From the NCBI GenBank assembly GCA_040218735.1, contig JAVJQW010000069.1:1-64000 (forward strand): a stretch of DNA of 64,000 nt, given 5' to 3'. Source of the stretch: Deltaproteobacteria bacterium. Its GTDB lineage: Bacteria > Myxococcota > Kuafuiibacteriia > Kuafuiibacteriales > Kuafuiibacteriaceae. This document shows, one piece after another, positions 21,918 to 59,785 of the stretch. The notes below the pieces were generated by a model, which saw only the letters and a program-made list of their open reading frames with translations, did not search any database and was not told the origin of the DNA. Within the stretch, counting starts at the first letter, position 1. Every line of letters begins with the position of its first letter. The translations under genes were made by a program, and so were the position numbers.

Positions 21918-21945
21918 ATTGACGAAAATAAGTCTTTTCGTACAC
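21918..21945. mobile_element. Candidate recombination site A (11-6-11)
   Basis: ATTGACGAAAA-TAAGTC-TTTTCGTACAC; 7-bp inverted arms (ACGAAAA/TTTTCGT); lies immediately upstream of the integrase; related copies at 54518 and 59758. Confidence 0.6.
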
Positions 21946-22070
21946 CACCGACGTGGTCCCGAGGAGCGCCTGTGTAATGGTTATACCCCATGCGGTTGTC
22001 GCCAACGGGCCTGCTTTGCCTGTGCGCATAGCGCAACTCGATACGCACGTTGGACCTAGTTGCGTTTGTG

Positions 22071-22084
22071 TCGACTAGAGTCGA
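22071..22084. promoter_or_regulatory. Palindrome, possible TA autoregulation operator
   Basis: TCGACT-AG-AGTCGA, 15 bp upstream of the HTH gene ATG. Confidence 0.35.
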
Positions 22085-22099
22085 TAAGGATAGCTAGCA

Positions 22100-22564
22100 A
22101 TGCACGCGCTCGACCCCACAACGATCGAGCGTCGACTCCGGACCAACGCGCCGGTGTCGGCGTCGCCCGAGGAGCAAGGCGAACTCGTTGAGCTCCTGCG
22201 GTGCCTTCCTCAGTGCAAGCTGGTCGGGCCCGAGGGCGAGGAGATTCACATCCCCGAAGCGACGTTCCGCATCCTCGAGCGCGTCGTCGAGCTGCTCGCG
22301 CGCGGCGACGCGATCACGCTCGTGCGCGTCGGCAAGGAGCTGACGACGCAGCAGGCCGCCAACATCCTCAACGTGTCGAGGCAGTACCTCGTTCGGCTGC
22401 TCGACGAAGGCCGAATCCCGTTCACCAAGACCGGCAAACATCGTCGACTTCGTATCGAGGACGTCCTCGAGTTCAAGCGCGAGCGCGACCGCGAACGACG
22501 CGCCGGCCTCGACGAGCTGACGCGCATGAGCGAGGACGCGGGCGGCTACCAGGAACTGAAGTAG
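22100..22564 (+). CDS. Excisionase-family HTH_17 DNA-binding protein (antitoxin-like partner of PIN gene)
   Basis: ELTTQQAANILNVSRQYLVRLLDEGRIPFTKTGKHRRLRIEDVL. Confidence 0.9.
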   Translation: MHALDPTTIERRLRTNAPVSASPEEQGELVELLRCLPQCKLVGPEGEEIHIPEATFRILERVVELLARGDAITLVRVGKELTTQQAANILNVSRQYLVRLLDEGRIPFTKTGKHRRLRIEDVLEFKRERDRERRAGLDELTRMSEDAGGYQELK

Positions 22565-22586
22565 GTATTACGGTAACAGAGCGTCC

Positions 22587-23150
22587 GTGCTCCTTCCGGC
22601 GCCCTTCAAGGTCGTGCTTGACGCGAACGTTCTGTTTCCGTTCACGCTGCGAGACACGCTGCTGCGCGCAGCGGCCGAAGGCTTCTTCCAGGTCTACTGG
22701 TCGGATCGAATCCTCGACGAGACCGTGCGGAACCTCGTCGCAACCAACACGACGACGGCTGAGCAAGCGGCAGGTCTGCGTGCGCAGATGACGAGGTTCT
22801 TTCCTGAGGCGCTCGTGACGGACTACGAGGTCCTGATCGATGCCATGCCGAACGACGAGAAGGACCGCCACGTCGCGGCCGCAGCAGTGAAGGCCGGCGC
22901 GCAGGTGATCGTGACGAACAACCTGAAGGACTTCCGCAGCCTCCCGGAGAACCTCGAGGCGCAATCCGCGGACGAGTTCCTCTGCAACCTGCTCGACCTC
23001 GCGCCCGACCAGATGCTGGCGCTCGTGCGGACCCAGGCCGCCGCGTTGCGCAAACCGCCGCGCACATTCGACGACATCCTCCGCGGCCTCGGCAAGTCGG
23101 CACCCTCTTTCGCCGCTGAGCTCCGGAACGCCGCCAAACGCGCCAGATGA
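22587..23150 (+). CDS. PIN-domain protein (PIN_3/VapC-like toxin)
   Basis: VVLDANVL, ILDE, DEKDRHVAAAAV, IVTNNLKDF; follows the HTH_17 gene as in the common pair. Confidence 0.9.
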   Translation: MLLPAPFKVVLDANVLFPFTLRDTLLRAAAEGFFQVYWSDRILDETVRNLVATNTTTAEQAAGLRAQMTRFFPEALVTDYEVLIDAMPNDEKDRHVAAAAVKAGAQVIVTNNLKDFRSLPENLEAQSADEFLCNLLDLAPDQMLALVRTQAAALRKPPRTFDDILRGLGKSAPSFAAELRNAAKRAR

Positions 23151-23202
23151 GGCGTCCTTGGCGGATCGTACAAAACGGTCGTACCCCGGCATAACGGGTA
23201 TA
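22990..23202 (+). repeat. Direct repeat copy 1: PIN 3' end plus degenerate site and -10-like box
   Basis: Aligns by eye with 54352-54567 (LLDL.PDQMLALVR.QAAALR.PPRTFDDIL.GLGKSAPSFAAELRNA and the following DNA). Confidence 0.85.
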
Positions 23203-23437
23203 CTCCACCCCGCCGCGAAGCTCACGCTCGGCGAGGGCTTCGGGGGAGTTTTCGGCGTACGCGCCGAGGCATGGTTCCGCCCCAGATGATGCGAATACGA
23301 AAGAAGCGAACAGGTGGTGGTGTCTGTCCGGCGGACGCGCCCGACATCGAGCTTTGTTCGGGCCATCAAGGCAAGGAACCCCTCGGCATTCAGGGGCTCA
23401 TTGCGTTTCGCGTTCTGGTCCGCAATACACCGAAGGG

Positions 23438-24736
23438 ATGCAGAATCGTCTCAAGGCCTTCTTGACCAACGCGGCACTGCTCGTCGTCACGCTAGGATGT
23501 GCCGAGGTTGTCCTGCAGATCGCCAATCACTACTCGACGCGGGCGGCACGGGTGTTGGCGCACCCGAAACATCGGGACAGCCCGTACGTATTCGATGTGG
23601 ATCGTGGCTTTCGTGGAAATCCGAGGCGATTCGACCACGACGGGCGTGGTTTCAGAAACGCTGGAGGTATCGAACAGACCGAGATTCTCGCCATCGGCGA
23701 CTCCCAGACCTACGGAGTAGGTGTTGAACGTCAGCGTGCCTGGCCATATGCGATCCACGAGGATTTCGACTACGACGTCTACAACATGGGGCTCGGCGGC
23801 TACGCACCACCACATCACCTGTTCTCGTTGGACCAAATGCTCGATCTGAAGCCGAGGGTCGTGGTGTACGCGGTGTACTTCGGCAACGACCTGATGGAGT
23901 CGTTTGCGATTGCACGTGATCACCCAGAGCTTCGCGCCCACATCGACGATGGGGTTTGGGCCGCGGCCATGCTTCAGGATGACGCCACGCCACTCGAAGA
24001 CGCGATCGACCTTTTCGTTCGCCGCGGTGCGCCCGCCCCGGAGGACGAGACGGATAACCAGAGCACCTTGACAGCCTTCCGGACATTCGTTTCGGAGCGG
24101 GTGATGATCTACGCGTTGGCGCGGGCTGCCTTCCATGTGACTGACGAGCGCTACGTGCCCGGATTGCTCAGCCGGGATTTCGAGAAAGCGAAGGCCGCGA
24201 TCACATCGCGTGAACGGGACTACTGCTCAGTCTACGACGACGGGAGTTGGCGAACGATCCTGACAGCGCCATACCGCGGCTTCATGCTCGACTCGGAGGA
24301 CGCGCGAGTTGAGGCGGGCTTCTTCGTAATGGTTCACGCTCTGGAACGGGTCATTGCGATGGCGGACGGCGTGGGTGCGCGGACTGTTATCGCCCTCATT
24401 CCCACGAAGGAGACGGTCTTCGCTCAGCGGATGAGTGAGCTGTCCGAGCATCCGAAGCTGACAAGGCTCGTCGAGGATGAAGCGCGATATAAGGCACGGC
24501 TGGTCGCGGCGCTGCGAAACCGCCGGGTGACGATCGTGGATACTCTTGCGGCCCTCGCGGGTTCGACGAGGCCTCCGTATTTTGAGGATGCGGATGGTCA
24601 TCCGAACATGTACGGACACGGCGTCTTGTCGAGTGTGATTGGTCCAGAACTCCGGGGGCCGGAAGCGGCTCTCCCGCGCTTCGCCTTGGAGGACGTTCGG
24701 CGTGAAGCCAACGCTGGAAAGCGCCAAGCACCGTAG
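23438..24736 (+). CDS. SGNH/GDSL hydrolase-family membrane-anchored protein (AlgX/AlgJ-like)
   Basis: N-terminal TM helix; blocks ILAIGDSQTYG, NMGLGGY, YFGND, DGHPN; ATG at 23438. Confidence 0.82.
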   Translation: MQNRLKAFLTNAALLVVTLGCAEVVLQIANHYSTRAARVLAHPKHRDSPYVFDVDRGFRGNPRRFDHDGRGFRNAGGIEQTEILAIGDSQTYGVGVERQRAWPYAIHEDFDYDVYNMGLGGYAPPHHLFSLDQMLDLKPRVVVYAVYFGNDLMESFAIARDHPELRAHIDDGVWAAAMLQDDATPLEDAIDLFVRRGAPAPEDETDNQSTLTAFRTFVSERVMIYALARAAFHVTDERYVPGLLSRDFEKAKAAITSRERDYCSVYDDGSWRTILTAPYRGFMLDSEDARVEAGFFVMVHALERVIAMADGVGARTVIALIPTKETVFAQRMSELSEHPKLTRLVEDEARYKARLVAALRNRRVTIVDTLAALAGSTRPPYFEDADGHPNMYGHGVLSSVIGPELRGPEAALPRFALEDVRREANAGKRQAP

Positions 24737-24879
24737 GTCTGGCTTCTGCCATACATCGTCTGCAAGGGTGTGGGGATGATGTACGGCACGTGTACCGCGC
24801 CGAATGACGGGGTTGCATCGTACGCGATGGCCCGTGTGTTCGGACGATCGAACGACGCTGGGCGGCAGATCGTCTAGGC

Positions 24880-25530
24880 ATGCGGGTACTGGTTGTCGAT
24901 GACGATTCCGAACTCTCCGAGCTATTGGGGCGGGCTCTTGAGCGCGACGGTCACGTGGTCTCGTTCGCGCTTCGGATCGAAGATGCGAAGAAGCGTCTGC
25001 TCGATGGCCTCGACCTACTCGTCCTCGATATTGGTCTTCCCGACGGATCGGGTCTCGCTTTCTGTGAGGAGATCCGCGCGTCCGGCAACGCAGTGCCGAT
25101 CCTCGTGCTTACAGCACAGTCCGCGGTGGCGCACCGAGTTGAAGGGCTCGATGCTGGCGCCGACGACTACTTGACCAAGCCGTTCGCGATTGCGGAGTTG
25201 CGAGCTCGCGTTCGTGCGCTGGCACGACGTAGAGACCGCATCGCAATTAGCGTTGTCGACGTGGGCGCCGCACGTCTCGACTTGGGGCGGCGGCGAGCAA
25301 CTCGCGGCGGTGGAGAAATCGAACTCACGACAAGGGAGTGGGGGATAGTTGAAGCTCTTGCGGCGCGGCATGGCCGAGTGGTCGCGCGCGAGACGATTCT
25401 CGAAGAGGTCTGGGGAAGCTCGACGTCGTCTGGTGCAGGCAGTCTAGAGGTTCTGGTTGCGCGGATCCGGCGCAAACTTGGACGACAGGTCATCAGAACG
25501 GAGCGTGGGATCGGGTACGCGCTTGGCTGA
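24880..25530 (+). CDS. OmpR-family response regulator
   Basis: VLVVDDD, LLVLDIGLPDGSG, GADDYLTKPF, winged helix with RGIGY. Confidence 0.95.
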   Translation: MRVLVVDDDSELSELLGRALERDGHVVSFALRIEDAKKRLLDGLDLLVLDIGLPDGSGLAFCEEIRASGNAVPILVLTAQSAVAHRVEGLDAGADDYLTKPFAIAELRARVRALARRRDRIAISVVDVGAARLDLGRRRATRGGGEIELTTREWGIVEALAARHGRVVARETILEEVWGSSTSSGAGSLEVLVARIRRKLGRQVIRTERGIGYALG

Positions 25531-26815
25531 GCGAACGCTTAGGACCCGGTTGGGCTGGATTGCGGCTGTAACGGCACTCGTCGCTTCGAGCACGACGCTT
25601 TCAGTGGCTCTCATCGCTACCGATCGGGGGGTATCGCGGGCCGCAGAGACTGCGCTTCTCGATCGAGCGCGGGCGCTGCAGTTCGAACTCGAACGAGAGG
25701 GCGACTATAGTCCGCCGCACGTCGACGAGGAGCTCTCCGAGTTCGTTCATGGCGATGTCACCGTCGCCGTCGACGGCCCCTACGGCATGCTGGCGGGATC
25801 GCCTGACCTACCAAGGCTTGGCGAAGAGAGGTGCGAAATCCTCGGCGGCGATCCGACTTGGATTGTCTGCGCCGCGAAGGGAGAGCGCGGCGTCTGGGTC
25901 TATGCAGGACGTCCACGGGCCTTGGTGCTCGCGCACCGGGACCTGCTCCTCTCCGCGGGGTTGGTCGCGCTCGTTGTCGTTGTGCTGGGGAGCCTCATTG
26001 CTGCGCTGATTGTCGTTCGCACTTCGCTAGCGCCACTCGTTCGATTGGTGGCAGCGGTCGATGCAATGAGCCCGGACTCTGCGGCACTGCCGCGCTCGGG
26101 GCTCGCCGAGGTGGACCGGCTCGCTGCCGCGCTCGAGAGCGCGACCGGTCGACTCACCGACGAGCTTCGCCGTTCGCGTGCGTTCGCAGCCGATGCTGCG
26201 CACGAGTTGCGAACGCCACTCGCTAAGCTCCGAACGACGCTCGAGTTGCGGGGCGAGACGCTTGCTCCGAACTCCGAGGCTGCCGCCGAGAATGATGCGT
26301 TGGTGATGCGCACAAAGTCCTTGGGCGAGCTGGTCGACCGCCTGCTGTTGCTCGCATCGCCTCAAGAGGCGTTGCAGGCGGCGACGCTCGTCTCCCTCGC
26401 AGCAACCGTCGACTCTGTAGCTGAGGAAGTGGGTCGCCCTGGGCGACTCGCGCTTCATCTGTTGGATGACGGTCTGGTGTATGGGGACGCGACGATCCTG
26501 GCCGCGATGGTCTCCAACGCGCTCGACAACGCATTGAAGTACGCTCCTGGTCCGATCGACGTATCCGTGCGCCGGCAAGATTCCGATGTTGTCGTCCGTG
26601 TAGACGACACGGGTCCTGGGCTCGAACCAGAGCACTTAGAGCGCGTGTTCGAGCCGTTCTATCGCGCGCCTGACCGTCGAGGCGCCCCGGGCTTCGGCAT
26701 CGGATTAGCGCTCGTCGCACACGTTGCAGCGGCCCACGGAGGCGAAGCCCGCTTCGTAACCGAGGATTCCGGCGCTCACCTCGTGATTTCCATCCCTGCT
26801 GCGTCCCCCTCGTAG
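25523..26815 (+). CDS. HAMP sensor histidine kinase
   Basis: Two TM segments, AAHELRTPL H-box, NALDNALKY, DDTGPG, GFGIGL; start assumed TTG 25523. Confidence 0.9.
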   Translation: MAERTLRTRLGWIAAVTALVASSTTLSVALIATDRGVSRAAETALLDRARALQFELEREGDYSPPHVDEELSEFVHGDVTVAVDGPYGMLAGSPDLPRLGEERCEILGGDPTWIVCAAKGERGVWVYAGRPRALVLAHRDLLLSAGLVALVVVVLGSLIAALIVVRTSLAPLVRLVAAVDAMSPDSAALPRSGLAEVDRLAAALESATGRLTDELRRSRAFAADAAHELRTPLAKLRTTLELRGETLAPNSEAAAENDALVMRTKSLGELVDRLLLLASPQEALQAATLVSLAATVDSVAEEVGRPGRLALHLLDDGLVYGDATILAAMVSNALDNALKYAPGPIDVSVRRQDSDVVVRVDDTGPGLEPEHLERVFEPFYRAPDRRGAPGFGIGLALVAHVAAAHGGEARFVTEDSGAHLVISIPAASPS

Positions 26816-26823
26816 ACGAGACT

Positions 26824-26844
26824 TCGTTCAGGTGTCGTTCAGGT
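26824..26844 (+). promoter_or_regulatory. Tandem direct repeat, OmpR/PhoB-type binding box
   Basis: TCGTTCAGGT-G-TCGTTCAGGT with 11-bp period, between the kinase and the TolC gene. Confidence 0.6.
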
Positions 26845-26892
26845 TGGTGTCCTACAACGGCGGGGACGGTCGCGACCGTCTCTCGCACTCGG

Positions 26893-28233
26893 ATGCTATC
26901 GCCGCGGCTAATGATCCAACGTGGGCGCGCTCGGCCGAGCCTCTTCTTCGTTCTCCCGCTACTCCTCGGTGGCGCTGCCTGTGCGACATCGAATCGCGAT
27001 CAGGGGTGGGTCGAGCAGCAGATCGCCTCGCGAGTGAGGGCGAGCGTTGTGGACGGCGTTGACGTGAAAGATGGCATCTCAGAGGACGAAGCGGCAGCGC
27101 TCGCCTTGAGTAGGAGCCCCACGTTTCTCGCCGACCTGACGAGGCTTCGCGCTGCGCAGGCCGACCTCGAGGAAGCGTCCCAGCCGACCAACCCTCGGCT
27201 CTCTGTGCTGGGCCCGATTGGCGTGATTGCTGCGGCGGTGAGCTTGCTGGCACCGGTGATGAGCTTCCTTCAGCTCCCGTGGCGCACTGAGGCAGCGGCG
27301 CGGCGCGTGGACTCGGTCGCGGAGTCACTCGTCCAGAGCGGACTCAACACTGTGCGTGACGCGCGGCTCGCACACATCGAGCTTGCCAACGTCCAGCGGC
27401 GTCTGCAGCAGCTTCGCGATCTTCATGACGTGGCCGAGAAGCTCGGCGGCCTCGCTGATGTCCGGGCCTCCATGGGAGACATCAGCCCTGCCGATGCGCT
27501 GGTCGTGCGCGCTCAGGCCGGCGTCGCGGCCGACGCGGTCGAGGTCGCCGAGCGGGATCTTGTTCTGGCCCAGGCGGCTTGGCGCATCGCGATTGGCTGG
27601 GGCGATGCGGTGGCGCCGGCGATCGTTTCGAGTCGCCCCCTTCCGTCGATCGCGCCTCCCGTCATGGATCTGATAACCGTGGCTCGCCAGGCGCGCCCCG
27701 ATGTCCGAGCGGCGGAGCTCGAACTCGAGGGCGCGGGAGCTCGTGCGGGACTCGAACGCTGGCAGATCGTCTCGCTGTCAGCGCAGGCCGATCTGCAGTG
27801 GACGGCGGGAGAGATGGGCTTGCGTGTGGGCGGGGTGCTGGACCTACCGGTGTTCAGTCGCAACGAAGGCGCGATCGGGCGCGCCGAGGCGGCTCTTCAG
27901 GGCGCCGTCCATCGTCTCGAGTTCGTTCGTCAGCGCGCGGTCGCAGAGGTGACCACCGCCCGTGTTCAGCTCGCTCAATCGATTCGGTCCTACGCCCGAT
28001 ACAGAACGGAGATTGTCCCGCCCCTCACGCGAGCGCTCGAAGCGGCTCGCGAGCAGTACGAGCGTGGCGACGTTCCCTACCTAATTGTTCTCGACGCCCT
28101 CAGCCGTCTGGGTGCTGCTCAGCTGCGGCAGATCGAGCTCGAGGCAGAGACGCGCCGCGCGTACGCCGAACTCGAACGCGCGGTGGGGGCTCGGATCGAA
28201 ATTTTACCGCAGCCAGAGGAGCCCATCCCGTGA
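26893..28233 (+). CDS. TolC/CzcC-family outer membrane efflux protein
   Basis: Lipobox GAAC; PTNPRLS, LDLPVFSRNEG, YERGDVPYL motifs; precedes MFP and RND genes. Confidence 0.88.
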   Translation: MLSPRLMIQRGRARPSLFFVLPLLLGGAACATSNRDQGWVEQQIASRVRASVVDGVDVKDGISEDEAAALALSRSPTFLADLTRLRAAQADLEEASQPTNPRLSVLGPIGVIAAAVSLLAPVMSFLQLPWRTEAAARRVDSVAESLVQSGLNTVRDARLAHIELANVQRRLQQLRDLHDVAEKLGGLADVRASMGDISPADALVVRAQAGVAADAVEVAERDLVLAQAAWRIAIGWGDAVAPAIVSSRPLPSIAPPVMDLITVARQARPDVRAAELELEGAGARAGLERWQIVSLSAQADLQWTAGEMGLRVGGVLDLPVFSRNEGAIGRAEAALQGAVHRLEFVRQRAVAEVTTARVQLAQSIRSYARYRTEIVPPLTRALEAAREQYERGDVPYLIVLDALSRLGAAQLRQIELEAETRRAYAELERAVGARIEILPQPEEPIP

Positions 28234-29384
28234 AAGCGTCGATCGGTATCGTCTTGATCGTCTTGTGTGCGTGTCGCGGCGAAGTGCCCCAACCGCACGC
28301 ATCTACGCCGTCGTCCGTCGAACACGGTGTCGCGGAGTCTGAGATTACCCGCGTGCATCTGACGGAAGAAGCGATCGCACGACTGGGTATTCGGACCTCG
28401 ACCGTCGGCGAGCGCGCCGTCGCGCAGCGACGACGCGTCGGGGGTGAGGTCATCATCCCTCCCGGACACACGCTGGCCCTAACCGCTCCCGTCGCAGGGC
28501 TCGTCCGCATGCGTCCCCACATTCGACCGGGAGCGAAGATCGAGGCAGGCGCGTCATTGCTCCGGCTCGTGCCCTTCGCTCCAACGGATCGGGACACGCG
28601 AGCCCGGGCGCAGCGCGAGCTCGCCGCAGCCCGCGCGACACTGGAGGCGGCCCAGGCTCGGCTGACACGAGCCAAAGCGCTCGCGGAACAGCGGGCGGGC
28701 AGTGAACGCGCCGTCGAAGAAGCGACAGCGACGCGAGACACCGCGCTGGCCGACGTCGAGATGGCGCAGGCGCGTGCGCGAGCGACAACCACGACGCCGC
28801 TACTTTCCGACGTCACGATGGACGTTCGCGCCCCCCAAGGTGGCGTCCTCCGAGCCGTGGCCGTGGCCGACGGACAGTCCGTGACGGCCGGTGCGCTGCT
28901 TGCGGAGGTGGTCGCAGTGCAGCAGCTCTGGGTTCGTGTACCGCTGTTCTCCGGTGATCTGGCCCGGCTCGCGCCCGGGAAGGTGTTGGTCAGGTCCCTG
29001 GCCCGAGACGCGCCGCGTGAAACCGAGGCTACGGCAGTTGCCGGACCGCCCACTTCGAACCCAACGCAGGCCACGGTCGATCGTTACTACGCACTCGATG
29101 AAGGAGCTCGTCTTGCTCCCGGCGAGCGCGTTCTGCTGTCGCTTCCGATGTCTGACACCGCGCACAGACGAACGATTCCGTCGTCCGCTGTGCTGTACGA
29201 CGCCAGCGGCGCACAGTGGGTCTACGTCGCCGACGAACCGAACATCTTTCGCCGAGCCCGCGTACAGACCCTGTTCCGCGACGGCTCCTCGGCGGTCCTT
29301 GCGAGGGGACCCTCGCTGGGCGAGGCCGTCGTCAAGACGGGCGCCGTTGAGATCTTCGGCGCCGAGTTCGAGCCGGGACACTGA
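28230..29384 (+). CDS. RND periplasmic adaptor (CzcB-like)
   Basis: GTG overlapping TolC stop; lipobox LCAC; APVAG...APQGG lipoyl halves, coiled coil, IPSSAV. Confidence 0.88.
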   Translation: MKASIGIVLIVLCACRGEVPQPHASTPSSVEHGVAESEITRVHLTEEAIARLGIRTSTVGERAVAQRRRVGGEVIIPPGHTLALTAPVAGLVRMRPHIRPGAKIEAGASLLRLVPFAPTDRDTRARAQRELAAARATLEAAQARLTRAKALAEQRAGSERAVEEATATRDTALADVEMAQARARATTTTPLLSDVTMDVRAPQGGVLRAVAVADGQSVTAGALLAEVVAVQQLWVRVPLFSGDLARLAPGKVLVRSLARDAPRETEATAVAGPPTSNPTQATVDRYYALDEGARLAPGERVLLSLPMSDTAHRRTIPSSAVLYDASGAQWVYVADEPNIFRRARVQTLFRDGSSAVLARGPSLGEAVVKTGAVEIFGAEFEPGH

Positions 29385-29387
29385 GGC

Positions 29388-32300: not shown

Positions 32301-32456
32301 GGTCACACCGCGGGTCACGAGATCGAGCACCCAATGGCAATCGTGATCCTCGGAGGCCTCGTGAGCTCGACGCTCCTAAATCTGTTCGCGATGCCGGTCG
32401 TCGTCTTCTTCAGCCGGAGGCCCCAACTCCGGTCCGAGGTCGGAGCAACGCCGTGA
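29388..32456 (+). CDS. Heavy-metal RND permease (CzcA/CusA family)
   Basis: DAFPEFAPPRVEVQTEAPG, GEVVDDAIIDVENI, ERLAPIVMTAL; 1022 aa. Confidence 0.95.
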   Translation: MKALVELCLRQRYVVVGLALLSVALGVVVTGGASFDAFPEFAPPRVEVQTEAPGLSSEEVEALVTTPLEGVLAGTPSTQELRSKSVLGLSSVVLVFEPGTDLLEARALVAERVARAPLPVVARPPVVLSPLSSTSRVLKIGVWSAEHTQMELSDLIRWVVRPRLMSVPGVANVAIWGERTRQLQVLVDPERLQASATTLDALLAVSREAVTPRSGGFVDTTNQRLAVQYAPVVRNTDELAAVPVREGLAVGDVAEVVEGHPPAIGEALVTRGVGLLLIAEKQPGANTLEVTRGLEAALEELAPGLPGIELDTTIFRPAGFIERALANLAEAMLIGTSLVILILILFLWDWRTAVISVVAIPLSLLAASTILTLLGRTLDTMVIAGLIIALGEVVDDAIIDVENIHRRLRECSDRSPSETLKIVLSASLEVRSAVVYATMIVVLVFAPVLVLPGVAGEFFVPLALGYGLAVFASMLVALTLTPTLALLLLPNHIQGDREPILARRLRAQYRRLLASVLRRPKRVLASSATVVVMSMVGLAALDQAFLPDFAENDFLMHWIGKPGTSLEAMARSADLAREELLAIPGVRNYGAHIGRAEVADEVVGPNFGELWVSVDPNADLEATLSQVQAVVDGYPGIYRDVQTYLQERMREVLSGGSGAIVVRVFGPGLEELRRRGRALASELEALDGVRHASPEAQVDVPQIVMSMRLDRCAALAVDPGTVRRQASVLLQGERVGTIVRGQQPIDVVVWGVQKARRDVEALRALMLDAGSNRIVRLEDVADVRVGPVPNTIAHHGGSRKLDVTIELEPGADLGALARSVEDLVRAHPFEAGYHAETLGEHVARQDAQRTLLAAGALALIGVFLILLADFSSFRMAALVMLSLPLALVGAVIAIVLTGGVVSLGTLVGLVTVMGIASRNGILLIAHYRHLEEVEKMPFGLELLLRGASERLAPIVMTALSTGLALVPLAVAGHTAGHEIEHPMAIVILGGLVSSTLLNLFAMPVVVFFSRRPQLRSEVGATP

Positions 32457-52968: not shown

Positions 52969-53075
52969 TGTTCCGCCTGATTAGTCCAGCATGAACGCGC
53001 CCTTCCTTACCTCCTCCCAGGAGATGCTCCGTTGATCGGCCTCGCGAGTCGGTCGCAGGTCTTCGCGTACGGGGG
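52965..53075. mobile_element. IS630-like end followed by a possible IS66 tnpB 5' scrap
   Basis: CTAGTGTTCCGCCTGATTAGT...CATGAAC matches the end at 34636; then MIGLASRSQVFAYG (weak similarity to IS66 orfB starts). Confidence 0.45.
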
Positions 53076-53268
53076 TGCGTGCGCGAACGTTTCATCGCCC
53101 GATCGAAGGTCCACGCGCTCGGCGGCGTCACACCAACCCGCGCGGCCAACATCCCAACGGACAAAGTTGAACACGAAATCCACTGTGCCACGGCGCGTCG
53201 ACGCTCGCCTGAGGCATTCCTGAGAACCCGCTCAGTTCGCGATTGCGGTCCGTCGCGCAGCGCCATCT

Positions 53269-53710
53269 TCACCGACGGCGACAGAAGCAGTACACGAACG
53301 ATTGCGTCGCGCCCCACGGCGTCTGATGTTGTTCGTTTGCCTCGCCGACCTTTTCGAACACGTCGCCGAACGTCGCGTGGATCCCTTGCGCGTCGTACCG
53401 CGCCACCGGCAGCCCGCTGCAGCGCTCGGGCCCGTCGAGCCCAAACGTCGCGACCATCACGTGTCCTCCTGGCTTCACCGCTCGGTGGACCTGCGCCAAG
53501 TACGCCGCGCGGGGCGAGGCCGCGGTGAGGAAGTGGAACACGGCTCGGTCGTGCCAGAAGTCCACCGAGTCAGGCGCCAGCAGCTCGGTCGTCACGTCGC
53601 CGATGATCCAGTCGACATCCGCCGCGCGGTTGGCGAGTCGTTCCTGCGCCGATGCGAGCGCCGGTTCGGCGAGGTCGACGACCGCCACGTTGCGAAAGCC
53701 CGCGGCACCG
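53269..53710 (-). pseudogene. 5'-truncated class I SAM-dependent methyltransferase
   Basis: GFRNVAVVDL...WHDRAVFHFL...KPGG...GPERCSGL; N-terminal SAM-binding motif I absent. Confidence 0.75.
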
Positions 53711-53770
53711 CCGCTTCAGCGGAAGCTCGAATGCAACCGCGCAAGCCGTTCTCAGGGAGCTGCTGCCGTA

Positions 53771-54332
53771 ATGCGTGTGATCGTCGCCGGCAGCCGCACC
53801 GCAACGGAGGCGCAGGTGAACGAAGCCTTGGGTCGGTGCCCATGGATCGGGTTCGCGACCGCCATCGTCTCGGGCACGGCCCGAGGAGCGGACCAGTTCG
53901 GCGAGCTGTGGGCGACCGAGCGCCGCCTGCACATCATTCGGTTTCCGGCGGACTGGAAAACGCGCGGGAACGATTCGCAACCGGCGGATGGCAGAGAACG
54001 CCGATGCACTGGTAGCGGTCTGGGATGGCGAGAGCCGCGGCACACGAAGCATGATCGAGCTCGCCCAACACTACGGTCTGCGCGTCCTCGTTCTTCGAAC
54101 CGACACCGACGAAACCGAGGACACCGCTCCAAGCGGCGACCTTGAGGATCCATGGGATGAGGCCGAGGAACGCGCGAGCATCCTCGAGTTCTGCGCGATG
54201 CTCCCGCGAGCGGAGGCAGAGTTCAGCGCGGGGACGCGAGCAGCAGAGCGCCGATGGCGGGGCGCCGACCGGGCGGCCGAGCGCACTCGAGCAGATCGTC
54301 AGTCACCAAAAAGCGTGCGCGAGCCCGCCTAG
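53771..54332 (+). pseudogene. Frameshifted SLOG/YspA-like (DUF2493) protein
   Basis: MRVIVAGSR...VSGTARGAD...FPADW in one frame; IRNRRMAENADALVAVWDGESRGT in another; break near 53970. Confidence 0.75.
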
Positions 54333-54351
54333 GCGTCGCCTACTCGCACAT

Positions 54352-54567
54352 TGCTCGACCTCTCGCCCGACCAGATGCTGGCGCTCGTGCGAGCTCAGGC
54401 CGCCGCGCTGCGTAGGCCGCCACGCACTTTCGACGACATCCTCGGCGGCCTCGGCAAGTCGGCGCCCTCTTTCGCCGCTGAGCTCAGGAACGCCACAGAA
54501 CGCGTCAAATGGGTCGTTCTGGCGCAAATAAGTCTTTTCATACAAGAAGGTGGGCATAGGGGTATAT
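54352..54567 (+). repeat. Direct repeat copy 2: orphan PIN 3' fragment plus site B and -10-like box
   Basis: Homologous to 22990-23202. Confidence 0.85.
54518..54545. mobile_element. Candidate recombination site B
   Basis: TCTGGCGCAAA-TAAGTC-TTTTCATACAA; shares AAATAAGTCTTTTCRTACA with site A. Confidence 0.6.
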
Positions 54568-54635
54568 GCGATGCATCGTGCATGGGGGCGCTTTGGCTGT
54601 TGCTTACAGGAGGCATGGTCTGTAGATTACAGACC

Positions 54636-56078
54636 ATGGCCAAATGGATCCGTCAGTCGCAGGCGTCATCCACTTCGAAGACATCGCAGCGGCGCGTGGA
54701 GTACCTCTCCGAGTTGACGTCCGAAATCGACGAACTGCTCCTCGCGCACCATCGCTCGCGTCCCGACGCGGAGGACTACACATTGGAGGTGCTACAGCGC
54801 CTCGGTCGCGAGCGACTCGTCGGTATCCGGGGAGAGGGGCGACTCGATCGGACGAAGCAGGACGTCGGTCTCCTCGTTGCCATTAGGCTGTCGCACGTCT
54901 TTGGGTCCAACAACGTTCTCACGTACCGTGAGAATAACGGGAAGAGAGTCTCGACTCGAGCTGCTCGTCGGGCCGGTCTTGAATGGGTCTCGCGATACAC
55001 CCCTCATCGTGTCGTCCGCCGCTTGCAGACCCCGAGAGTAGTCCTAGATGCGAACATCACTCGGTACCTCATTCAAGGGAGTACGAACCCAGAGAATATC
55101 CTCGATCTTACCCATCTAGGGCTTGTGCGCGGTCGACATCCCGTCTCGATTGCTGATGCCGCTTGGGCTGAGATCCTCGCCGCGCTTGTTCGTGGCAGCA
55201 TTGGTCTCGACGACTGGAGGGCGAGGATCGGTGCGCTCGATGCGGTGTTGTGTTCTGAGCTACCTATTGTGCCGACGGGTCGAGAGTTGGCACACCTTAG
55301 CGGCCTCATTCCGATGCCGGGTTACGATCCGATTGAGAGCTCGGCGTTCTACGCCGCTGCCTGGCGGTTTACCGCCGATGCTCAGTCGCTCGACGATTTA
55401 CGTGCCAGACGCATCTATGAAGCCAGGGATGGGCGCCAATTCGAGATCCAGCTAGACCTTGATCGACCCCGTATTGAGCTCGCAGAGCGTGGCCGCGGAT
55501 GGGCAGGATGGGTTGAACGTATCGCTGCAGCGTTCAGTGGATCCATTTCACTGGAAGAAGCCCAAGCACTTGTGCGCGAGAATCTCCTCAAGGACATGCC
55601 CGAGTCCGCTGTCGACCGGCTGGCCGGTCTTACTGATGCTGTCGGATACTACGCGACTCGGATCGCCACCAAGGAGTACGAACCGAGCGATAACGACGCC
55701 GTTGATCTCGACGTTCTCTTCGCACTCGCGATGCCAGGCATTGTTTGCACGAGCGACAGGCGGCTGCGAAATCTGTTGAAGCACGCGGAATCGTCAGACG
55801 CCTGGCGGGTAATGTCTCCGTCGGAGCTGATTAGCTGGCTGAAGGAGCGCAGAGAGCAACTTTGCCCGACCTGCGGTGCAGAACTGAGAAGAAGGGCCGT
55901 GCGCGAACTGGCGATGCCAGACGACGACGCCACTGAAGGCCAGTTTGCGGACTGGATCGGTGCCACAGAGAGTGGGGACTTCGGAGAGTGGGCCGTCGAG
56001 TACGAGGAGCTATTCTGTCCACGATGTGAGTCGCCGATGATGCGAGCACTGCGAACGATGACAGGCGCGCGTCGGTAA
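54636..56078 (+). CDS. Divergent PIN-like protein with C-terminal Zn ribbon
   Basis: VVLDANIT, AWAEI, NDAVDLD, VCTSDRRL; CPTC...CPRC; start ATG 54615 or 54636. Confidence 0.65.
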   Translation: MAKWIRQSQASSTSKTSQRRVEYLSELTSEIDELLLAHHRSRPDAEDYTLEVLQRLGRERLVGIRGEGRLDRTKQDVGLLVAIRLSHVFGSNNVLTYRENNGKRVSTRAARRAGLEWVSRYTPHRVVRRLQTPRVVLDANITRYLIQGSTNPENILDLTHLGLVRGRHPVSIADAAWAEILAALVRGSIGLDDWRARIGALDAVLCSELPIVPTGRELAHLSGLIPMPGYDPIESSAFYAAAWRFTADAQSLDDLRARRIYEARDGRQFEIQLDLDRPRIELAERGRGWAGWVERIAAAFSGSISLEEAQALVRENLLKDMPESAVDRLAGLTDAVGYYATRIATKEYEPSDNDAVDLDVLFALAMPGIVCTSDRRLRNLLKHAESSDAWRVMSPSELISWLKERREQLCPTCGAELRRRAVRELAMPDDDATEGQFADWIGATESGDFGEWAVEYEELFCPRCESPMMRALRTMTGARR

Positions 56079-56090
56079 CGGTTCGAAGAT

Positions 56091-56125
56091 CTGACTATCG
56101 ATAATGGTATCTTATCGATAGTCAG
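56091..56125. mobile_element. Perfect 14-7-14 palindrome, lox/res-like site (E)
   Basis: CTGACTATCGATAA-TGGTATC-TTATCGATAGTCAG. Confidence 0.65.
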
Positions 56126-57429
56126 GTGCGTTTCGCTCCGTCTCGCTCAGAGTCCGGTCGCCACTCAGCGCGAGACTCGAGGTAGTTCAAGCCCACGGAA
56201 ACTCCGCGCGCATTGGCGCACATCTTCGAGTAGCCACGAAGAAGGCTGTGGCGGAATCGGTACCAGCTCCTCCGACTGCTGATGAGCGCTGGTCCATGAG
56301 CCGCCTTCTTAAGCTGATTCAAAGCAAACGAGAACTTCTTCCGCGGTAGGGCTTCGACTTCGAGGTCTGAGCAAATGCGAACGTATGCTGGGTACATGTG
56401 CTCCGTGGAACGCTCTAGCTCCCAGTGATCTGCAACGGACCAAAGGACTGGTTCATACCGATCCTTGTACTTCTGAACTGCATTGTCATAGGCCGATTTC
56501 AGCCAAGCCTCGGAGTCCTCGATCGCATCGATCAAGCCAGCCTCGTAGTCCTGAACGCCAATCTTCGGATCTGCATCGGATTCCCTGAGGAGTTTGCGAA
56601 TTACAGTTTTGAGGCCGATGAGGTGCGCGTAGTGCGCGAAGCCGTCGGAGATGCATGCGATTCGAAATGCAATATCTCGCGACATGCTGAAGCCAAGTCG
56701 GGCAACCCCCTGGACGAGAATGTCGTGTATTGCGTCAAGTGGGAGTCGCTCGAGTTTGATGGTGGCCATGTAGCGCGAAGCGGACTCGTGGTGGTCAAGG
56801 AGCTCGTCCACCGTATCCCCGATGCCTACGAAGATGAACTTTATGGGGCAATCGCGGTCCCCGAGTTGCTTAAGAAGAAACGCGATGTCTCGTCTCACAT
56901 CGGTGGATTGGACGCGGTCCAACTCGTCGACCACGACAACGGTCCGTTCCGAGGCGGGTGCGCGCGAGGCGATTTCGTTGAGCAAGTCCACCGCATCGTT
57001 GACATCGATCTCGTGCGGCACATTGCCCGGTTCGGTCTCGATGCGGTGAAGGAGCGAAGCTCCGAACGCGCTGGCTTTTGCTTCTGTGGTGTGTCGAAGG
57101 CGGCGTGTCGAATATATTGGCAGCCCGAGGAGACGTCGCGCGATCTGAGAGACAAGTCGTGGAAACGAGATCGTGGGGTGGCAGCTGATGAGGATTGGAT
57201 CGGAGTCGGAGGAGTTGAACAGGTACGCGGAGGTCTGAGCCAGGGACGTCTTTCCGACTCCGCGCTCTCCGAACATGAAGACGGATCGGCCGGGCGTATC
57301 AAGGCTTTCAAGGGTCCGTTCTACTTGTCGATCACGACCGTACAGGAGTTCGCGCTCTTTCACCGGTTGGGATGGACGGAATATGCGTGCCGCAAGATTC
57401 TTGGTTGCTTCATCCACGGTGCCCACCAC
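56122..57429 (-). CDS. AAA+ ATPase (Orc1/Cdc6- or STAND-like) with C-terminal winged helix
   Basis: LYGRD, GERGVGKTS, VVVVDELD, FIFVG, SDGFAHYAH; start likely GTG at 57417-57429. Confidence 0.85.
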   Translation of the reverse strand: MVGTVDEATKNLAARIFRPSQPVKERELLYGRDRQVERTLESLDTPGRSVFMFGERGVGKTSLAQTSAYLFNSSDSDPILISCHPTISFPRLVSQIARRLLGLPIYSTRRLRHTTEAKASAFGASLLHRIETEPGNVPHEIDVNDAVDLLNEIASRAPASERTVVVVDELDRVQSTDVRRDIAFLLKQLGDRDCPIKFIFVGIGDTVDELLDHHESASRYMATIKLERLPLDAIHDILVQGVARLGFSMSRDIAFRIACISDGFAHYAHLIGLKTVIRKLLRESDADPKIGVQDYEAGLIDAIEDSEAWLKSAYDNAVQKYKDRYEPVLWSVADHWELERSTEHMYPAYVRICSDLEVEALPRKKFSFALNQLKKAAHGPALISSRRSWYRFRHSLLRGYSKMCANARGVSVGLNYLESRAEWRPDSERDGAKRT

Positions 57430-57458
57430 GCTATCGATAAGGGGGCGCTTTCGATAGC
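57430..57458. mobile_element. Imperfect 11-7-11 palindrome (F), same arm as site E
   Basis: GCTATCGATAA-GGGGGCG-CTTTCGATAGC, 45 bp upstream of the recombinase. Confidence 0.6.
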
Positions 57459-57503
57459 CAAAAACTGGACGGGCGCCCTGCCCTGCCGCTTCATCGGGGT
57501 GCG

Positions 57504-58490
57504 ATGCCACCCCACGAAAGCCAGTTCCCCTCCTCTGCCCTCGTCCTCGACGGCTCCGAGCTCGCGCTCGCCGAGCTACTCGAGGACGTGCAGCGGTACG
57601 CGCAGGCCGGGACCACAGAGGGGACGAAGGCGGCCTACGGACGGTACTGGAAGGGCTTCATCGCGTGGGCGGATGCCCACGACGCCCAGCCGCTGCCCGC
57701 CGCGCCCCAGACCGTCGCCCTCTTTCTGGCCGAGCTCGCGAACCGCGGGCTCGCCGCGGCGACGCTGGACTTCGCGCTGGTCGCCATAAGTCGCGCGCAC
57801 AAGCGCGCCGGCTTCGACTCGCCGACGTCGTCCGCCGTCTTGAGCGAGGTCCGCAAGGGCATTCGGCGCCAGATCGGTACCGCCCAGGACCAGAAGGCTG
57901 CGCTCCTGATCGAAGATCTCCGTCGGATGATCGAAGCCCTCCCCTCCGGTCTCCAAGGCACCCGCGATCGCGCGCTCCTCCTCGTTGGTTTCGCCGGTGC
58001 CTTCCGGCGCTCTGAGCTCGTCGCGCTCAAGGTCGGCGACGTCGAGATCGTCTCCCAGGGTATGCGGGTGCACATCCGCCGTTCGAAGACGGACCAAGAG
58101 GCCGCTGGGCGAATCATCGGCATCCCGAACGGCCGCGCTGAGCTGACGTGCCCGGTGCAGGCGCTAACGCAGTGGCTGCAGGAGGCCCGGATCCATGAGG
58201 GGCCGATCTTCCGCGGCATCGATCGCCATGGGCGCATGAAGCCGAAAGGACTGACGCCGCAGTCCGTGGCGCTCGTCGTGAAGAAGGCGGCGAAGCGCGT
58301 TGGTCTCGACCCAAAGCGCTTCGCGGGGCACTCCTTACGCTCCGGGCTTGCGACTTCGGCGGCGCGCGCTGGTGTCCAGGATCGCGTCATCGCGCAGCAA
58401 ACGGGGCATCGTTCGATGAAGGTGCTGGGGCGCTACATTCGCGAAGGCAAGCTGTTCGAGGAGAACGCCGCCGGCGAGGTGGGCTTGTAG
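57504..58490 (+). CDS. Cre-like tyrosine recombinase
   Basis: RDRALLLVGFAGAFRRSEL, RSKTDQ, AGHSLRSG, TGHRS...RYIR. Confidence 0.94.
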   Translation: MPPHESQFPSSALVLDGSELALAELLEDVQRYAQAGTTEGTKAAYGRYWKGFIAWADAHDAQPLPAAPQTVALFLAELANRGLAAATLDFALVAISRAHKRAGFDSPTSSAVLSEVRKGIRRQIGTAQDQKAALLIEDLRRMIEALPSGLQGTRDRALLLVGFAGAFRRSELVALKVGDVEIVSQGMRVHIRRSKTDQEAAGRIIGIPNGRAELTCPVQALTQWLQEARIHEGPIFRGIDRHGRMKPKGLTPQSVALVVKKAAKRVGLDPKRFAGHSLRSGLATSAARAGVQDRVIAQQTGHRSMKVLGRYIREGKLFEENAAGEVGL

Positions 58491-58492
58491 GC

Positions 58493-59704
58493 GTGGCAAC
58501 AAGGAAGAAGACCGATACGAAGCGACCCACTCGCAAGACGAGCACGAAGGCGAGGAAGCCGAAGCCGAGCAAGTCCGATGCGAAGGTGACGAAGCCGAAG
58601 AAGCGCTCCGCTTCGGCCTCGTCGCCTACGGCGAAGAAGAAGGGCCCGGGCCCGGCCGCGGACGATTACGGGGCCGTTCTCGAGGAGTTGGTGGAGATCG
58701 TTGATACCGCGCGGCGGATGGCGGTCCGTTCCGTGAACGCCGTCATGACAGCGGCCTACTGGCAAATCGGTCGCCGGCTTGTTGAGCATGAGCAGTCCGG
58801 ATCTCGCCGTGCAGAGTACGGACAGGCGCTTGTGGAGCGCGTTTCTGCGGAGCTGACGGCTCGGTTCGGGCGAGGATTCGGGAAGAGCAACCTGTTCCAG
58901 ATGCGCGCCTTCTACCTGGCGTACCGCTCGATGTTCCAGACGGTGTCTGGAATATCGAGTGTCGTCGATCCGGGCAGTGCCGCCGACCGATTCCCGCTGT
59001 CGTGGTCTGCATACGTTACCCTTCTGCGGGTCGAGAACGAAGCCGCGCGACGATTCTACGAGGAGGAGGCGCTTCGCGGCGGATGGAGCGTGCGCCAGCT
59101 CGACCGCCAAATCGGCTCGCAGTTCTACGAGCGCACCCTACTCTCGAGAAACAAGGCGGCGATGCTTCGCAAGGGCTCCAAGCCGAAGGCCGAGGACGCA
59201 GTCTCGATCCAGGAGGAGACCCGTGACCCGTATGTGTTGGAGTTCCTCGATCTGAAGGACGAGTACTCCGAGACTGATCTCGAAGAGGCGCTGATCCGAC
59301 ACCTCGAGTCCTTCCTGCTCGAACTCGGTGGCGACTTCACTTTTGTCGGCCGCCAGAAGCGCCTCCGGATTGGCGACAACTGGTTCCGCGTCGACCTTGT
59401 ATTCTTCCATCGCGGGCTCCGATGCCTCGTGCTCATCGACCTAAAGCTCGGCCGGCTGACGCACGCCGACGTTGGGCAGATGCACACGTACTGCAACTAC
59501 GCCCGCCGTCATTGGATTCGCGACGGAGAGAATCCCCCCGTCGGCCTGATTCTCTGCGCCGACGAGAACCGTGCGTTGGCCGAGTACGCCCTCGAAGGAC
59601 TCCCGAACAAGGTGCTCGCAGCGCGGTACCGAACCGAACTCCCCGACACGAAGATGCTCGAGCAGGAACTCTCGCGCACCAAGCGGCGCCTTGAGCGAGG
59701 CTGA
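58493..59704 (+). CDS. yhcG: YhcG/DUF1016 PD-(D/E)xK nuclease-domain protein
   Basis: YWQIG, LSWSAY, WSVRQL, DPYVLEFL, LLELGGDF, VDLVFF...LIDLK...GQM; Lys-rich N-terminal tail. Confidence 0.92.
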   Translation: MATRKKTDTKRPTRKTSTKARKPKPSKSDAKVTKPKKRSASASSPTAKKKGPGPAADDYGAVLEELVEIVDTARRMAVRSVNAVMTAAYWQIGRRLVEHEQSGSRRAEYGQALVERVSAELTARFGRGFGKSNLFQMRAFYLAYRSMFQTVSGISSVVDPGSAADRFPLSWSAYVTLLRVENEAARRFYEEEALRGGWSVRQLDRQIGSQFYERTLLSRNKAAMLRKGSKPKAEDAVSIQEETRDPYVLEFLDLKDEYSETDLEEALIRHLESFLLELGGDFTFVGRQKRLRIGDNWFRVDLVFFHRGLRCLVLIDLKLGRLTHADVGQMHTYCNYARRHWIRDGENPPVGLILCADENRALAEYALEGLPNKVLAARYRTELPDTKMLEQELSRTKRRLERG

Positions 59705-59757
59705 AGCCGGCCCACGGGGCTCAGATCACCCTATTCGGCTCTAGGAGGAACGGCTTT

Positions 59758-59785
59758 GGTGGCGCAGATAGACATTTTCATACTC
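59758..59785. mobile_element. Candidate recombination site C
   Basis: GGTGGCGCAGA-TAGACA-TTTTCATACTC; arms match site B. Confidence 0.5.

Follow-up and report, generated by a model that had tools for sequence, protein, structure and literature searches.

To our knowledge, modular islands built by site-specific recombination have so far been described mainly as integrons, which use folded attC sites, and as pdif modules, which depend on the host Xer recombinases. Other systems, such as Cre/loxP of P1 and ResD/rfsF of F, consist of a lone small tyrosine recombinase and an inverted-repeat, short-spacer site near its own gene, and perform multimer resolution at a single site. Excerpts of a preprint on sedentary chromosomal integrons report toxin–antitoxin and defence cargo (bioRxiv 10.1101/2024.07.02.601686). 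For pdif modules, parts of one study describe host XerC and XerD acting on dif-like arms, with paired sites that are mostly inverted and have divergent central regions; the central region governs compatibility, and movement is thought to proceed via cointegrates (PMC11705084). Passages of two papers on ICE/IME/CIME arrays and PAISt indicate that internal att copies permit modular excision (PMC4057263, PMC5704250).

The window is the whole stretch of DNA analysed here, 64,000 nt of contig C37, which continues beyond it. It contains an intact recombinase gene, Int1, followed by modules between which a short site recurs in one orientation. Consequently, the island looks as if it was built by repeated site-specific insertion. 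The coordinates are collected in Table 1.

Table 1. Sites, recombinases and cargo of the island, in window positions unless contig C37 is named.
Feature	Position	Strand	Remarks
Degraded second Int1 copy	4157..5125	-	~91% nt identity; indels; 5' end and site lost
Int1	20894..21916	-	Intact Xer-like simple tyrosine recombinase, 340 aa; Pfam Phage_integrase
Site A	21918-21945	+	Primary site; ATTGACGAAAA-TAAGTC-TTTTCGTACAC; abuts Int1 start
HTH_17 (excisionase-family) gene	22100-22564	+	Pfam; divergent from Int1
PIN_3 gene	22587-23150	+	Pfam; divergent from Int1
Site D	23157-23173	+	Decayed; 10 nt missing including spacer; 7 nt after PIN_3 stop codon
Metal and efflux cargo	23354..54351	.	Pfam; no internal site
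Second PIN_3 gene, 3' remnant	54352..54517	+	88% identical to 22990-23158; abrupt homology start at 54352
Site B	54518-54545	+	Spacer TAAGTC, as in A
Module B-C	54546..59757	.	STAND-type ATPase, Int2, YhcG/DUF1016 nuclease
STAND-type ATPase	56122-57510	-	Pfam
Int2 recombinase	57504-58490	+	Pfam; 27% identical to Int1
YhcG/DUF1016 nuclease	58493-59704	+	Pfam; PADLOC PDC-S02, 447 bits
Site C	59758-59785	+	Spacer TAGACA
Module C-E	59786..64000, on to site E	.	Int3, AbiEii, AbiEi
Int3 recombinase	61410-62447	-	Pfam
AbiEii	62574-63473	-	PADLOC 293 bits
AbiEi	63473 to C37:64054	-	PADLOC 218 bits
Site E	C37:64184-64207	+	Full site, TGACGCAAA-TGGACC-TTTTCGTAC; 184 nt beyond window
Gabija GajB + GajA	C37:64285-67630		Between E and candidate F; PADLOC GajA 670, GajB 545 bits
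Candidate terminal site F	C37:69519-69542		4 mismatches to site pattern

Sites A, B and C, together with D, which lacks its centre, were first proposed in a first-pass annotation and were re-found in the sequence; all four are intergenic. Site A contains a perfect 7-nt inverted repeat (ACGAAAA/TTTTCGT) on either side of its spacer, and the strongest conservation among the sites spans 9+9 nt. All five full sites retain 8-9 of the 9 nt of the distal arm despite unrelated flanks, and the likeness among A, B, C and E ends beyond about 28 nt. B and D also resemble each other on the left-hand side, because each comes after the 3' end of a PIN gene and the two genes are homologous (88% over 169 nt); D itself aligns to the B region with a 10-nt gap across the centre. 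A search of the 11,606,468-nt assembly with the degenerate 24-nt pattern TGRCGMARATANNNNTTTTCRTAC, allowing up to 3 mismatches, found five places, all on the plus strand and only on contigs C37 and C36, namely A, B, C, E and a site beside a third Int1 copy on C36. The single orientation proposed by the annotation therefore extends to every full copy in 11.6 Mb. The backwards-read control pattern gave no matches; a looser pattern, run against 19 further genomes from the order and 400 from the phylum, likewise gave none. Sites of the A/B/C/E type are more than chance, and the motif is confined to the island rather than being the genome-wide transcription-factor motif that the annotation had named as its alternative. 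Candidate F is not significant by sequence alone, since 4-mismatch matches come about 20 times per Mb. A and B do share their spacer and bracket 32,600 nt, as had been claimed; such a match has a chance of about 1/4096 for one given pair, hence about 0.002 over 10 pairs. Each of C, E and F has a spacer of its own, different from that of A. A -35-like hexamer lies inside A and is absent from B and C.

Int1 reads away from the array and site A adjoins its 5' end, again as annotated, with a gap of 2 nt for a start at the ATG at 21916 or of 23 nt for the start used in the annotation, the ATG at 21895, which yields 333 aa. The protein matches Pfam Phage_integrase (PF00589) with 97 bits. Its top NCBIfam matches are XerC, XerA and XerD, all under their equivalog cut-offs; the best of these, XerC, reaches 126 bits, far under the cut-off of 335, while the best match among solved structures is an archaeal XerC-like protein (E 3e-22). 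The R..K..HxxR..H..Y residues are intact and lie in columns that are invariant or nearly so in the family alignment. With a catalytic domain carrying R-K-H-R-H/W-Y and no arm-binding domain, Int1 belongs to the Xer-like simple tyrosine recombinases. The degraded second copy sits downstream of an RHS toxin/immunity pair; such a second Int1 behind another RHS unit is what stacking of whole Int1-bearing elements would produce.

Typically, one such site stands directly in front of the recombinase gene in the Int1 family. In 37 of 72 testable metagenomic loci, this gene is preceded by an inverted repeat of the same design, here 9-6-8, defined as at most 3 mismatches to TTATGAGAA-N6-TTCTCACA within 300 nt upstream; the other 35 have no match at this threshold, and elsewhere the pattern occurs only 4 times in 916,752 nt. 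When inverted repeats were sought without bias upstream of 75 metagenomic family genes, the same motif type came out best in about 29, in a list judged by eye. The closest relatives (L009, L010 and L081, 54-59% identity) have GAAAA/TTTTC arms, as in the window. Int1-family genes also occur in 1786 PLSDB plasmid records at E<=1e-30, all below 60% identity, and one complete 8.4-kb circular plasmid carries a single such site 48 nt upstream of its family gene. Across the family, the site lies within tens of nucleotides of the start codon, and in unrelated metagenomes this type of site accompanies the recombinase family next to it. A single site per locus is the rule among the relatives, and nine related loci with the primary site and at least 5 kb of array side contain isolated half-sites only and no comparable array. 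Consequently, the proposal of an undescribed cassette system survives in its recombinase–core site architecture but is not supported as a general system.

Comparison of C37 with C36 places the sites at breaks of homology. The first and last 141 nt of the two contigs are identical, and they can be aligned only over the RHS core, over Int1 with site A (91.6%) and from site F to the end (96.5%). The interval from A to F consists of unrelated DNA, 7 kb in C36 and 47.6 kb in C37, and homology through Int1 and site A stops 6-8 nt past the site. Among Logan contigs, one from run X5 has the C36-type Int1 and site followed by other DNA from 6 nt past the site, and in those of run X9 the immunity gene and Int1 are about 99.8% identical and the right flank about 92%, with the C36 cargo absent. 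In five related metagenomic loci, homology extends inwards from the distal arm, but there are four different upstream flanks and five different spacers. No A''/F'' joint, circle junction or inter-site joint was found in four runs, for which the search used contigs only and is blind to rare variants.

The modules are multigene units of 1.2-31 kb with their own regulators, and every module from B onwards contains a defence system according to PADLOC. The site separates toxin–antitoxin, metal-resistance and phage-defence modules, in line with the earlier division. Site B comes after a gene remnant and C after the nuclease gene, E is flanked by the AbiEi start and the GajB end, and the sites have no downstream gene in common. 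The metal and efflux cargo comprises a GDSL lipase, two two-component systems, two RND efflux sets, a multicopper oxidase, a P-type ATPase, a cupredoxin, a cytochrome c, a methyltransferase and a SLOG protein, and it contains no further plus-strand site at up to 4 mismatches. Near 40 kb, its GC content rises stepwise from about 0.63 to about 0.69. The HTH_17/PIN_3 pair, previously read as a toxin–antitoxin cassette, recurs beside Int1-family genes. Full-length homologues of both proteins (36% and 38% identity) are encoded on the cyanobacterial plasmid NC_019736 in the same divergent layout beside such a gene, flanked by direct repeats of about 175 nt, and homologues also occur in L081. The pair may belong to the recombination module and not to the cargo. 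Int2, which has its own palindromes just upstream, and Int3 are recombinases of other, unrelated types; their presence in two modules suggests that some modules may have come by other routes.

The sole dif-like site of the assembly, at C20:6948-6975 (ACTTCCCATAA-TGGACG-TTATGTCAAAT), is the candidate host dif. The arms of the island sites differ from it, as the annotation had stated with respect to canonical dif, although the host assignment of C36 and C37, and hence this comparison, is uncertain in view of their lower GC content (0.61 and 0.64 vs about 0.69 in the rest of the bin) and of contig ends found in no other contig. The island sites lack the inner ATAA/TTAT motif, which the part of the pdif study dealing with it describes as decisive for XerC/D binding (PMC11705084). 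Two host Xer-type genes, on C8 and C61, score 315 and 286 bits against the XerD model.

Judged from sequence, the sites are probably the core sites of Int1 as a dedicated Xer-like recombinase, and the island probably grew by serial integration of circular modules. From the distribution and common orientation of the sites, their family-wide pairing with the gene and the homology breaks at them, we infer binding and catalysis by Int1, an order of events and possible present activity. Int1 dimers would bind both arms, with strand exchange inside the 6-nt spacer. A circle with one compatible site would integrate at the resident site beside Int1, and every integration would leave its insert between two directly repeated sites. 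Repetition would yield the array Int1-A-(HTH/PIN)-D-(metal)-B-(STAND, Int2, nuclease)-C-(Int3, AbiE)-E-(Gabija)-F-flank. Because A and B have the same spacer, they are the expected pair of the most recent integration and may still be able to excise the 32.6-kb interval, while D, having lost its spacer, would be dead. The other spacers suggest that C, E and F are older, were imported with their modules or are no longer compatible, and since these spacers differ from A's and from each other's, classical two-step exchange among them is not expected. A module lacking Int1 could be mobilised only in trans.

The data are explained equally well by tandem accretion of site-bearing circles, which is a known process, and by a new cassette platform. 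It is conceivable, though rather doubtful, that Int1 and the 9-6-9 site work together as a gene-capture platform of a non-integron kind, with simple duplex sites as the substrates of a dedicated Xer-like recombinase and with whole multigene modules stacked and exchanged at a single docking site. If so, its modules would be defence systems, metal resistance, toxin–antitoxin pairs and, beyond these, entire RHS toxin units that bear Int1; the excisionase-family/PIN pair may be a conserved accessory, and docking sites of this class would be widespread, marked by the large, uncharacterised Int1 family, whose metagenomic and plasmid-borne members run into the thousands.

The sites could also be inert scars, that is, remnants of resolution or attachment sites of plasmids or other elements, carried by modules that were joined through cointegration or other rearrangement, with Int1 now being only the resolvase or autoregulator of its own element and no cassettes moving. 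The one site per locus in relatives, the 1786 plasmid records, the decay of D, the mutually incompatible spacers of C, E and F and the lack of junction products in the contigs of four runs are all in line with this. However, it is unlikely given the near-complete distal arm amid unrelated flanks, the spacer common to A and B, and cargo that differs exactly at the site between C36, C37 and other runs. A palindrome bound by a transcription factor, either Int1 as autorepressor or the HTH_17 protein, with copies regulating neighbouring genes, is improbable: B, C and E share no downstream gene, the hexamer is not kept in B or C, and homology breaks are unexpected of operators. These points outweigh the family-wide proximity to the start codon, the location of A between divergent genes and the -35-like hexamer in A. 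Operator and recombination roles are not exclusive.

Two further explanations assign the sites to described machineries. As dif-like substrates of host XerCD, they would delimit modules as in Acinetobacter pdif modules or IMEX elements, and the 11-6-11-like architecture, the two host Xer-type genes and the toxin–antitoxin, metal and adaptive cargo, which resembles that of pdif modules, would then be accounted for. Arms unlike the only dif-like site of the assembly, the missing inner motif and a dedicated recombinase with a co-varying site at the array make this very improbable. If the island were a true integron, A would be its attI and the remaining sites its attC. This reading would explain a recombinase divergent from and outside a one-orientation array, but is practically ruled out by the integrase model scores and site structure. 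Int1 reaches 67.5 bits against TIGR02249 (cut-off 265) and 39.4 bits against NF011946 (cut-off 435), in both cases over the C-terminal residues 252-338 only. The sites resemble one another over just 24-28 nt of 9-6-9 design, without the extended imperfect palindromes of attC, and the modules reach 31 kb. Hence, of the integron-like character claimed for the island, the geometry holds (divergent integrase, one-orientation array from a primary site), while the model scores, the simple duplex-type sites and the large modules contradict it.

With the sites regarded as Int1 core sites, a very large unnamed family of Xer-like recombinases becomes linked to a defined cognate site, so that its targets are predictable from sequence. 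The island also provides one concrete locus in which each module, set apart by the site, holds one defence or resistance system and two locus versions differ exactly between sites. If Int1 is active, it would offer a simple self-contained recombinase/site pair, a new marker to find defence and resistance cargo, and a test case for spacer identity deciding which modules still move.

Like integrons, the island has its recombinase gene outside and divergent from the array, beside the primary site, with secondary sites in one orientation and toxin–antitoxin and defence cargo. It differs from them in its short duplex-type 9-6-9 sites instead of folded attC and in its large multigene modules, which have their own promoters and regulators and in some cases their own recombinases. 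With the Acinetobacter pdif (Xer) modules on Rep_3 plasmids, it shares short 11-6-11-type sites that bracket adaptive modules (toxin–antitoxin, metal, resistance), whereas its arms are unlike the candidate host dif, the gene of a dedicated recombinase lies at the array and every site is a direct repeat. As in accreted elements, direct repeats of an att core stand at the junctions (full at A, B, C and E, decayed at D, candidate at F), and in ICE/IME/CIME arrays and PAISt, according to the passages cited above, elements with and without their own integrase likewise stack at one attachment site. Those elements use heteromeric-type integrases with arm sites, usually at a tRNA or gene-end attB, and carry the site at the outer end of their own element; the island, in contrast, combines a simple Xer-like enzyme with a symmetric core site located between the recombinase gene and the array. 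Cre/loxP and ResD/rfsF, compared by description rather than by reference sequences, resemble Int1 in the adjacent simple site and in the many Int1 relatives on plasmids, but the island differs from both in having 5-6 sites in an array that separates cargo modules.

The four sites that the first-pass annotation had proposed as dividers of the island into cassettes (A, B, C and the centre-deleted copy D) were all found as described. When the complete assembly (GCA_040218735.1, 11.6 Mb) was scanned with a regular expression that tolerated up to 3 mismatches, five matches were returned, all on the + strand: A, B, C and E on C37, the contig that holds the window (JAVJQW010000069.1), and one copy on a second contig, C36, whose left flank is the same as that of A. 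The pattern read backwards, used as a control, gave 0 matches, and a looser pattern gave 0 both in the order's 19 other genomes and in a sample of 400 genomes from the phylum. Consequently, the motif is real, rare and island-specific, and a genome-wide transcription-factor motif is ruled out. The segment TTTTCRTAC is retained in 5 of the 5 full sites, the Int1-side arm is variable, and, beyond about 28 nt, A, B, C and E are set in unrelated flanking sequence. By our own arithmetic, the identity of the A and B spacers has a chance of about 0.002 over ten pairs. The candidate terminal site F has 4 mismatches and its sequence is by itself without significance; its weight derives from its position.

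Gene order and recombination sites of the island (window coordinates unless marked C37)
Feature	Position	Strand	Remarks
RHS toxin gene			window begins inside it; putative immunity gene next
Degraded recombinase (Int1) copy	4157-5125		about 91% identical; indels; 5' end and site gone
4697-aa RHS protein, then beta-propeller protein	between degraded copy and intact Int1
Int1, intact recombinase	20894-21916	-	followed by site A
Site A	21918-21945	+	perfect 7-nt inverted repeat around spacer TAAGTC
Excisionase-family HTH_17 gene and PIN_3 gene	between A and D
Site D	23157-23173		alignable to B; 10 nt across centre missing
Copper/metal efflux and regulators	after D		31 kb
Second PIN_3 gene	directly before B		165-nt 3' remnant; 88% identical to first PIN_3
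Site B	54518-54545	+	spacer TAAGTC, same as A
STAND-type ATPase, Int2, DUF1016 nuclease	between B and C		nuclease is PADLOC candidate PDC-S02, 447 bits
Site C	59758-59785	+	spacer TAGACA
Int3 and AbiEii/AbiEi	between C and E
Site E	C37:64184	+	184 nt beyond window; new full site from assembly scan
Gabija	after E		GajA 670 bits, GajB 545 bits
Site F	start of C36/C37 right homology block (from 69515)		site-like element; TGCATGAAA-GCAGGG-TTTTCGTAC; array orientation in both contigs

Int1, the Xer-like tyrosine recombinase beside site A, carries a Pfam phage-integrase domain, and its catalytic residues are intact and lie in conserved alignment columns. The best NCBIfam matches are XerC, XerA and XerD, all far under the equivalog cut-offs, and, among solved structures, XerD and archaeal XerA-type proteins are the closest. 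Among 8000 candidates scored, 2145 proteins are relatives at E<=1e-20; 41 relatives were aligned, and the alignment was then used in fetching 80 metagenomic loci. A blind search for the best 8-6-8 inverted repeat ahead of the gene covered the 75 loci whose upstream DNA was long enough; in about 29 of these, according to our reading of the list, the best repeat was of the same motif type. The pattern TTATGAGAA-N6-TTCTCACA, with up to 3 mismatches, is found no more than 300 nt upstream of the gene, on the same strand, in 37 of the 72 testable loci, compared with only 4 matches in the remaining 916,752 nt; the other 35 testable relatives are without a clear site. The family site consists of an almost invariant gene-distal arm, a looser gene-proximal arm and a spacer that varies after its first base, and the arm asymmetry is also present in the window sites. 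GAAAA/TTTTC arms like those of the window sites also occur in the three nearest relatives (54-59% identity); therefore, site and enzyme co-vary. A complete 8.4-kb plasmid carries one family-type site 48 nt before its gene. In five loci whose recombinase genes are nearly identical, homology extends inwards from the distal arm, but there are four different upstream flanks and five different spacers. From these comparisons, the site type goes with the Int1 family. No arrays were found in the 9 related loci that combine a primary site with 5 kb or more of array-side DNA, and further copies of each related locus's own distal arm (one mismatch allowed) were scattered half-sites only. In species-representative genomes, a single-protein scan for close Int1 relatives gave only C36 of the same assembly. 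No site is visible upstream of a distant relative in a genome of the order, G015 (54% identity, residues 148-339), and a different palindrome lies upstream of an Escherichia coli plasmid homologue (43% identity). In one metagenomic relative (L013), two family-type sites, at 9902 and 11055, flank the recombinase gene in inverted orientation.

Other explanations of the family and of the island were considered. The family motif is matched by at least 118 viral stretches, and an Int1-like gene is present in just 3 of 80 fetched loci with such a match, which rules out a viral origin and means that most of these matches are due to chance in AT-rich DNA. Three RHS toxin units (window 2-3457 and 5530-19623; locus L002, 2-3367) are each directly followed by an Int1 copy. 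A general linkage to RHS genes is ruled out, since no RHS homologue is found in the 80 metagenomic and 5 other Int1-family loci; having RHS genes as neighbours is a local feature of the present locus. The C-terminal tips of the three units differ, as do the genes downstream of them (an unknown gene, a PQQ-like propeller and an LRR protein), and in the RHS-linked copies the Int1-unit homology starts at the Int1 stop codon. A tRNA-linked island is likewise ruled out, because the window contains no tRNA or tmRNA gene.

The first-pass annotation had described the cargo as toxin-antitoxin, metal and defence genes. The metal genes are present and each module from B on holds one defence system; the toxin-antitoxin part is less secure, since the HTH_17/PIN_3 pair may serve the recombination module as an accessory instead of being cargo. 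This pair also adjoins Int1-family genes on plasmid NC_019736 and in locus L081. On the plasmid, direct repeats of some 175 nt with 77% identity lie on either side of it (430-680 and 1775-2025 of locus L094), an arrangement that parallels the A-D bracket of the window. The GC content of C37 is 0.643, versus about 0.69 for most of the assembly, and within the D-B interval (window 40000-54000) it rises in a step, near a P-type ATPase gene, from about 0.63 to about 0.69; therefore, the 'metal island' is itself composite. No recognisable site lies at this step. On known plasmids, megablast with 21900-46800 and 46800-64000 gave only short gene-level matches of 70-84% identity. The other two recombinases, Int2 and Int3, share 47% identity with one another and only 27% with Int1. 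Immediately upstream of Int2 lie palindromes of its own, and some modules may therefore have arrived by other routes. Two lox-like palindromes, TGACTATCGATAA-TGGTATC-TTATCGATAGTCA and GCTATCGATAA-N8-TTTCGATAGC (window 56092-56128 and 57424-57460), flank the STAND-type ATPase gene, the second of them 44 nt ahead of Int2; these palindromes contain the window's only exact copies of the 10-mer CTATCGATAA and may be Int2's own site pair.

C36 (13.5 kb) and C37 (70 kb) agree exactly over 141 nt at each end and represent either an assembly bubble or two paralogous loci. Only three blocks of the two contigs align by BLAST: the RHS core (86.7%), Int1 with site A (91.6%) and the stretch from 69515 to the end (96.5%). 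The second block ends 6-8 nt past the site, so that homology breaks at the site. The A-F interval holds 47.6 kb in C37 versus 7 kb of unrelated genes in C36 (IS, protein kinase and unknown genes). Of the 18 runs, from seven studies, that contain parts of the C36 stretch, four runs were examined, all as Logan contigs, in which rare forms are invisible. One contig of run X5 matches the C36-type Int1 with its site and continues into other DNA from 6 nt past the site. Run X4 has the C36 cargo with 0-1 differences; X9 has the immunity gene and the 3' part of Int1 with 4 differences in 1959 nt and a right flank about 92% identical, with the C36 cargo absent. No A''-F'' joint was seen in the Logan contigs of the four runs, whose uncovered parts are uninformative, and this is not evidence against excision.

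Both contigs have a lower GC than the bin, and their end sequences are in no other contig of it; consequently, their assignment to this host and to a replicon is tentative. The assembly has two Xer-type genes and only one classical dif-like site, ACTTCCCATAA-TGGACG-TTATGTCAAAT at C20:6948-6975, which is likely the host dif. The island sites have neither arm in common with it, and so, as far as the contigs belong to this host, they are not its dif; the earlier statement had been that their arms differ from canonical dif. Another dif-like site, GCTTCCGATAA-GGGTCA-TTATGTCCACT, is weaker and is found around position 4859 of C31, a small contig.

In the proposed mechanism, Int1 would bind the arms and exchange strands within the 6-nt spacer, so that a circle with one compatible site could integrate at a resident site. 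Every integration would leave two direct sites with an identical spacer. A and B, with the same spacer, would stem from the most recent event and would be the only two sites still capable of classical excision; D would be dead, and C, E and F would be older or would have come in with their modules. The degraded Int1 copy that follows the first RHS unit would fit the stacking of whole Int1-bearing elements.

The most useful product of the analysis is a very large unnamed recombinase family linked to its site. In the literature searched, which left subscription journals and supplements outside its coverage, no description of the island site or the Int1 family was found; the family half-site gave unrelated primer matches only, and recombinase-site defence cassettes gave only integron and pdif papers. 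The integron-like reading of the first-pass annotation stands as regards geometry, but membership among integrons fails on site structure and on the integrase, as Int1 scores 67.5 bits with the integron-integrase model, against a cut-off of 265. Acinetobacter pdif modules resemble the island in site architecture and cargo; those modules use host XerCD, with dif-like arms, mostly inverted pairs and a required shared central region (PMC11705084). In process, the island resembles the tandem accretion of integrative elements and PAISt modular excision.
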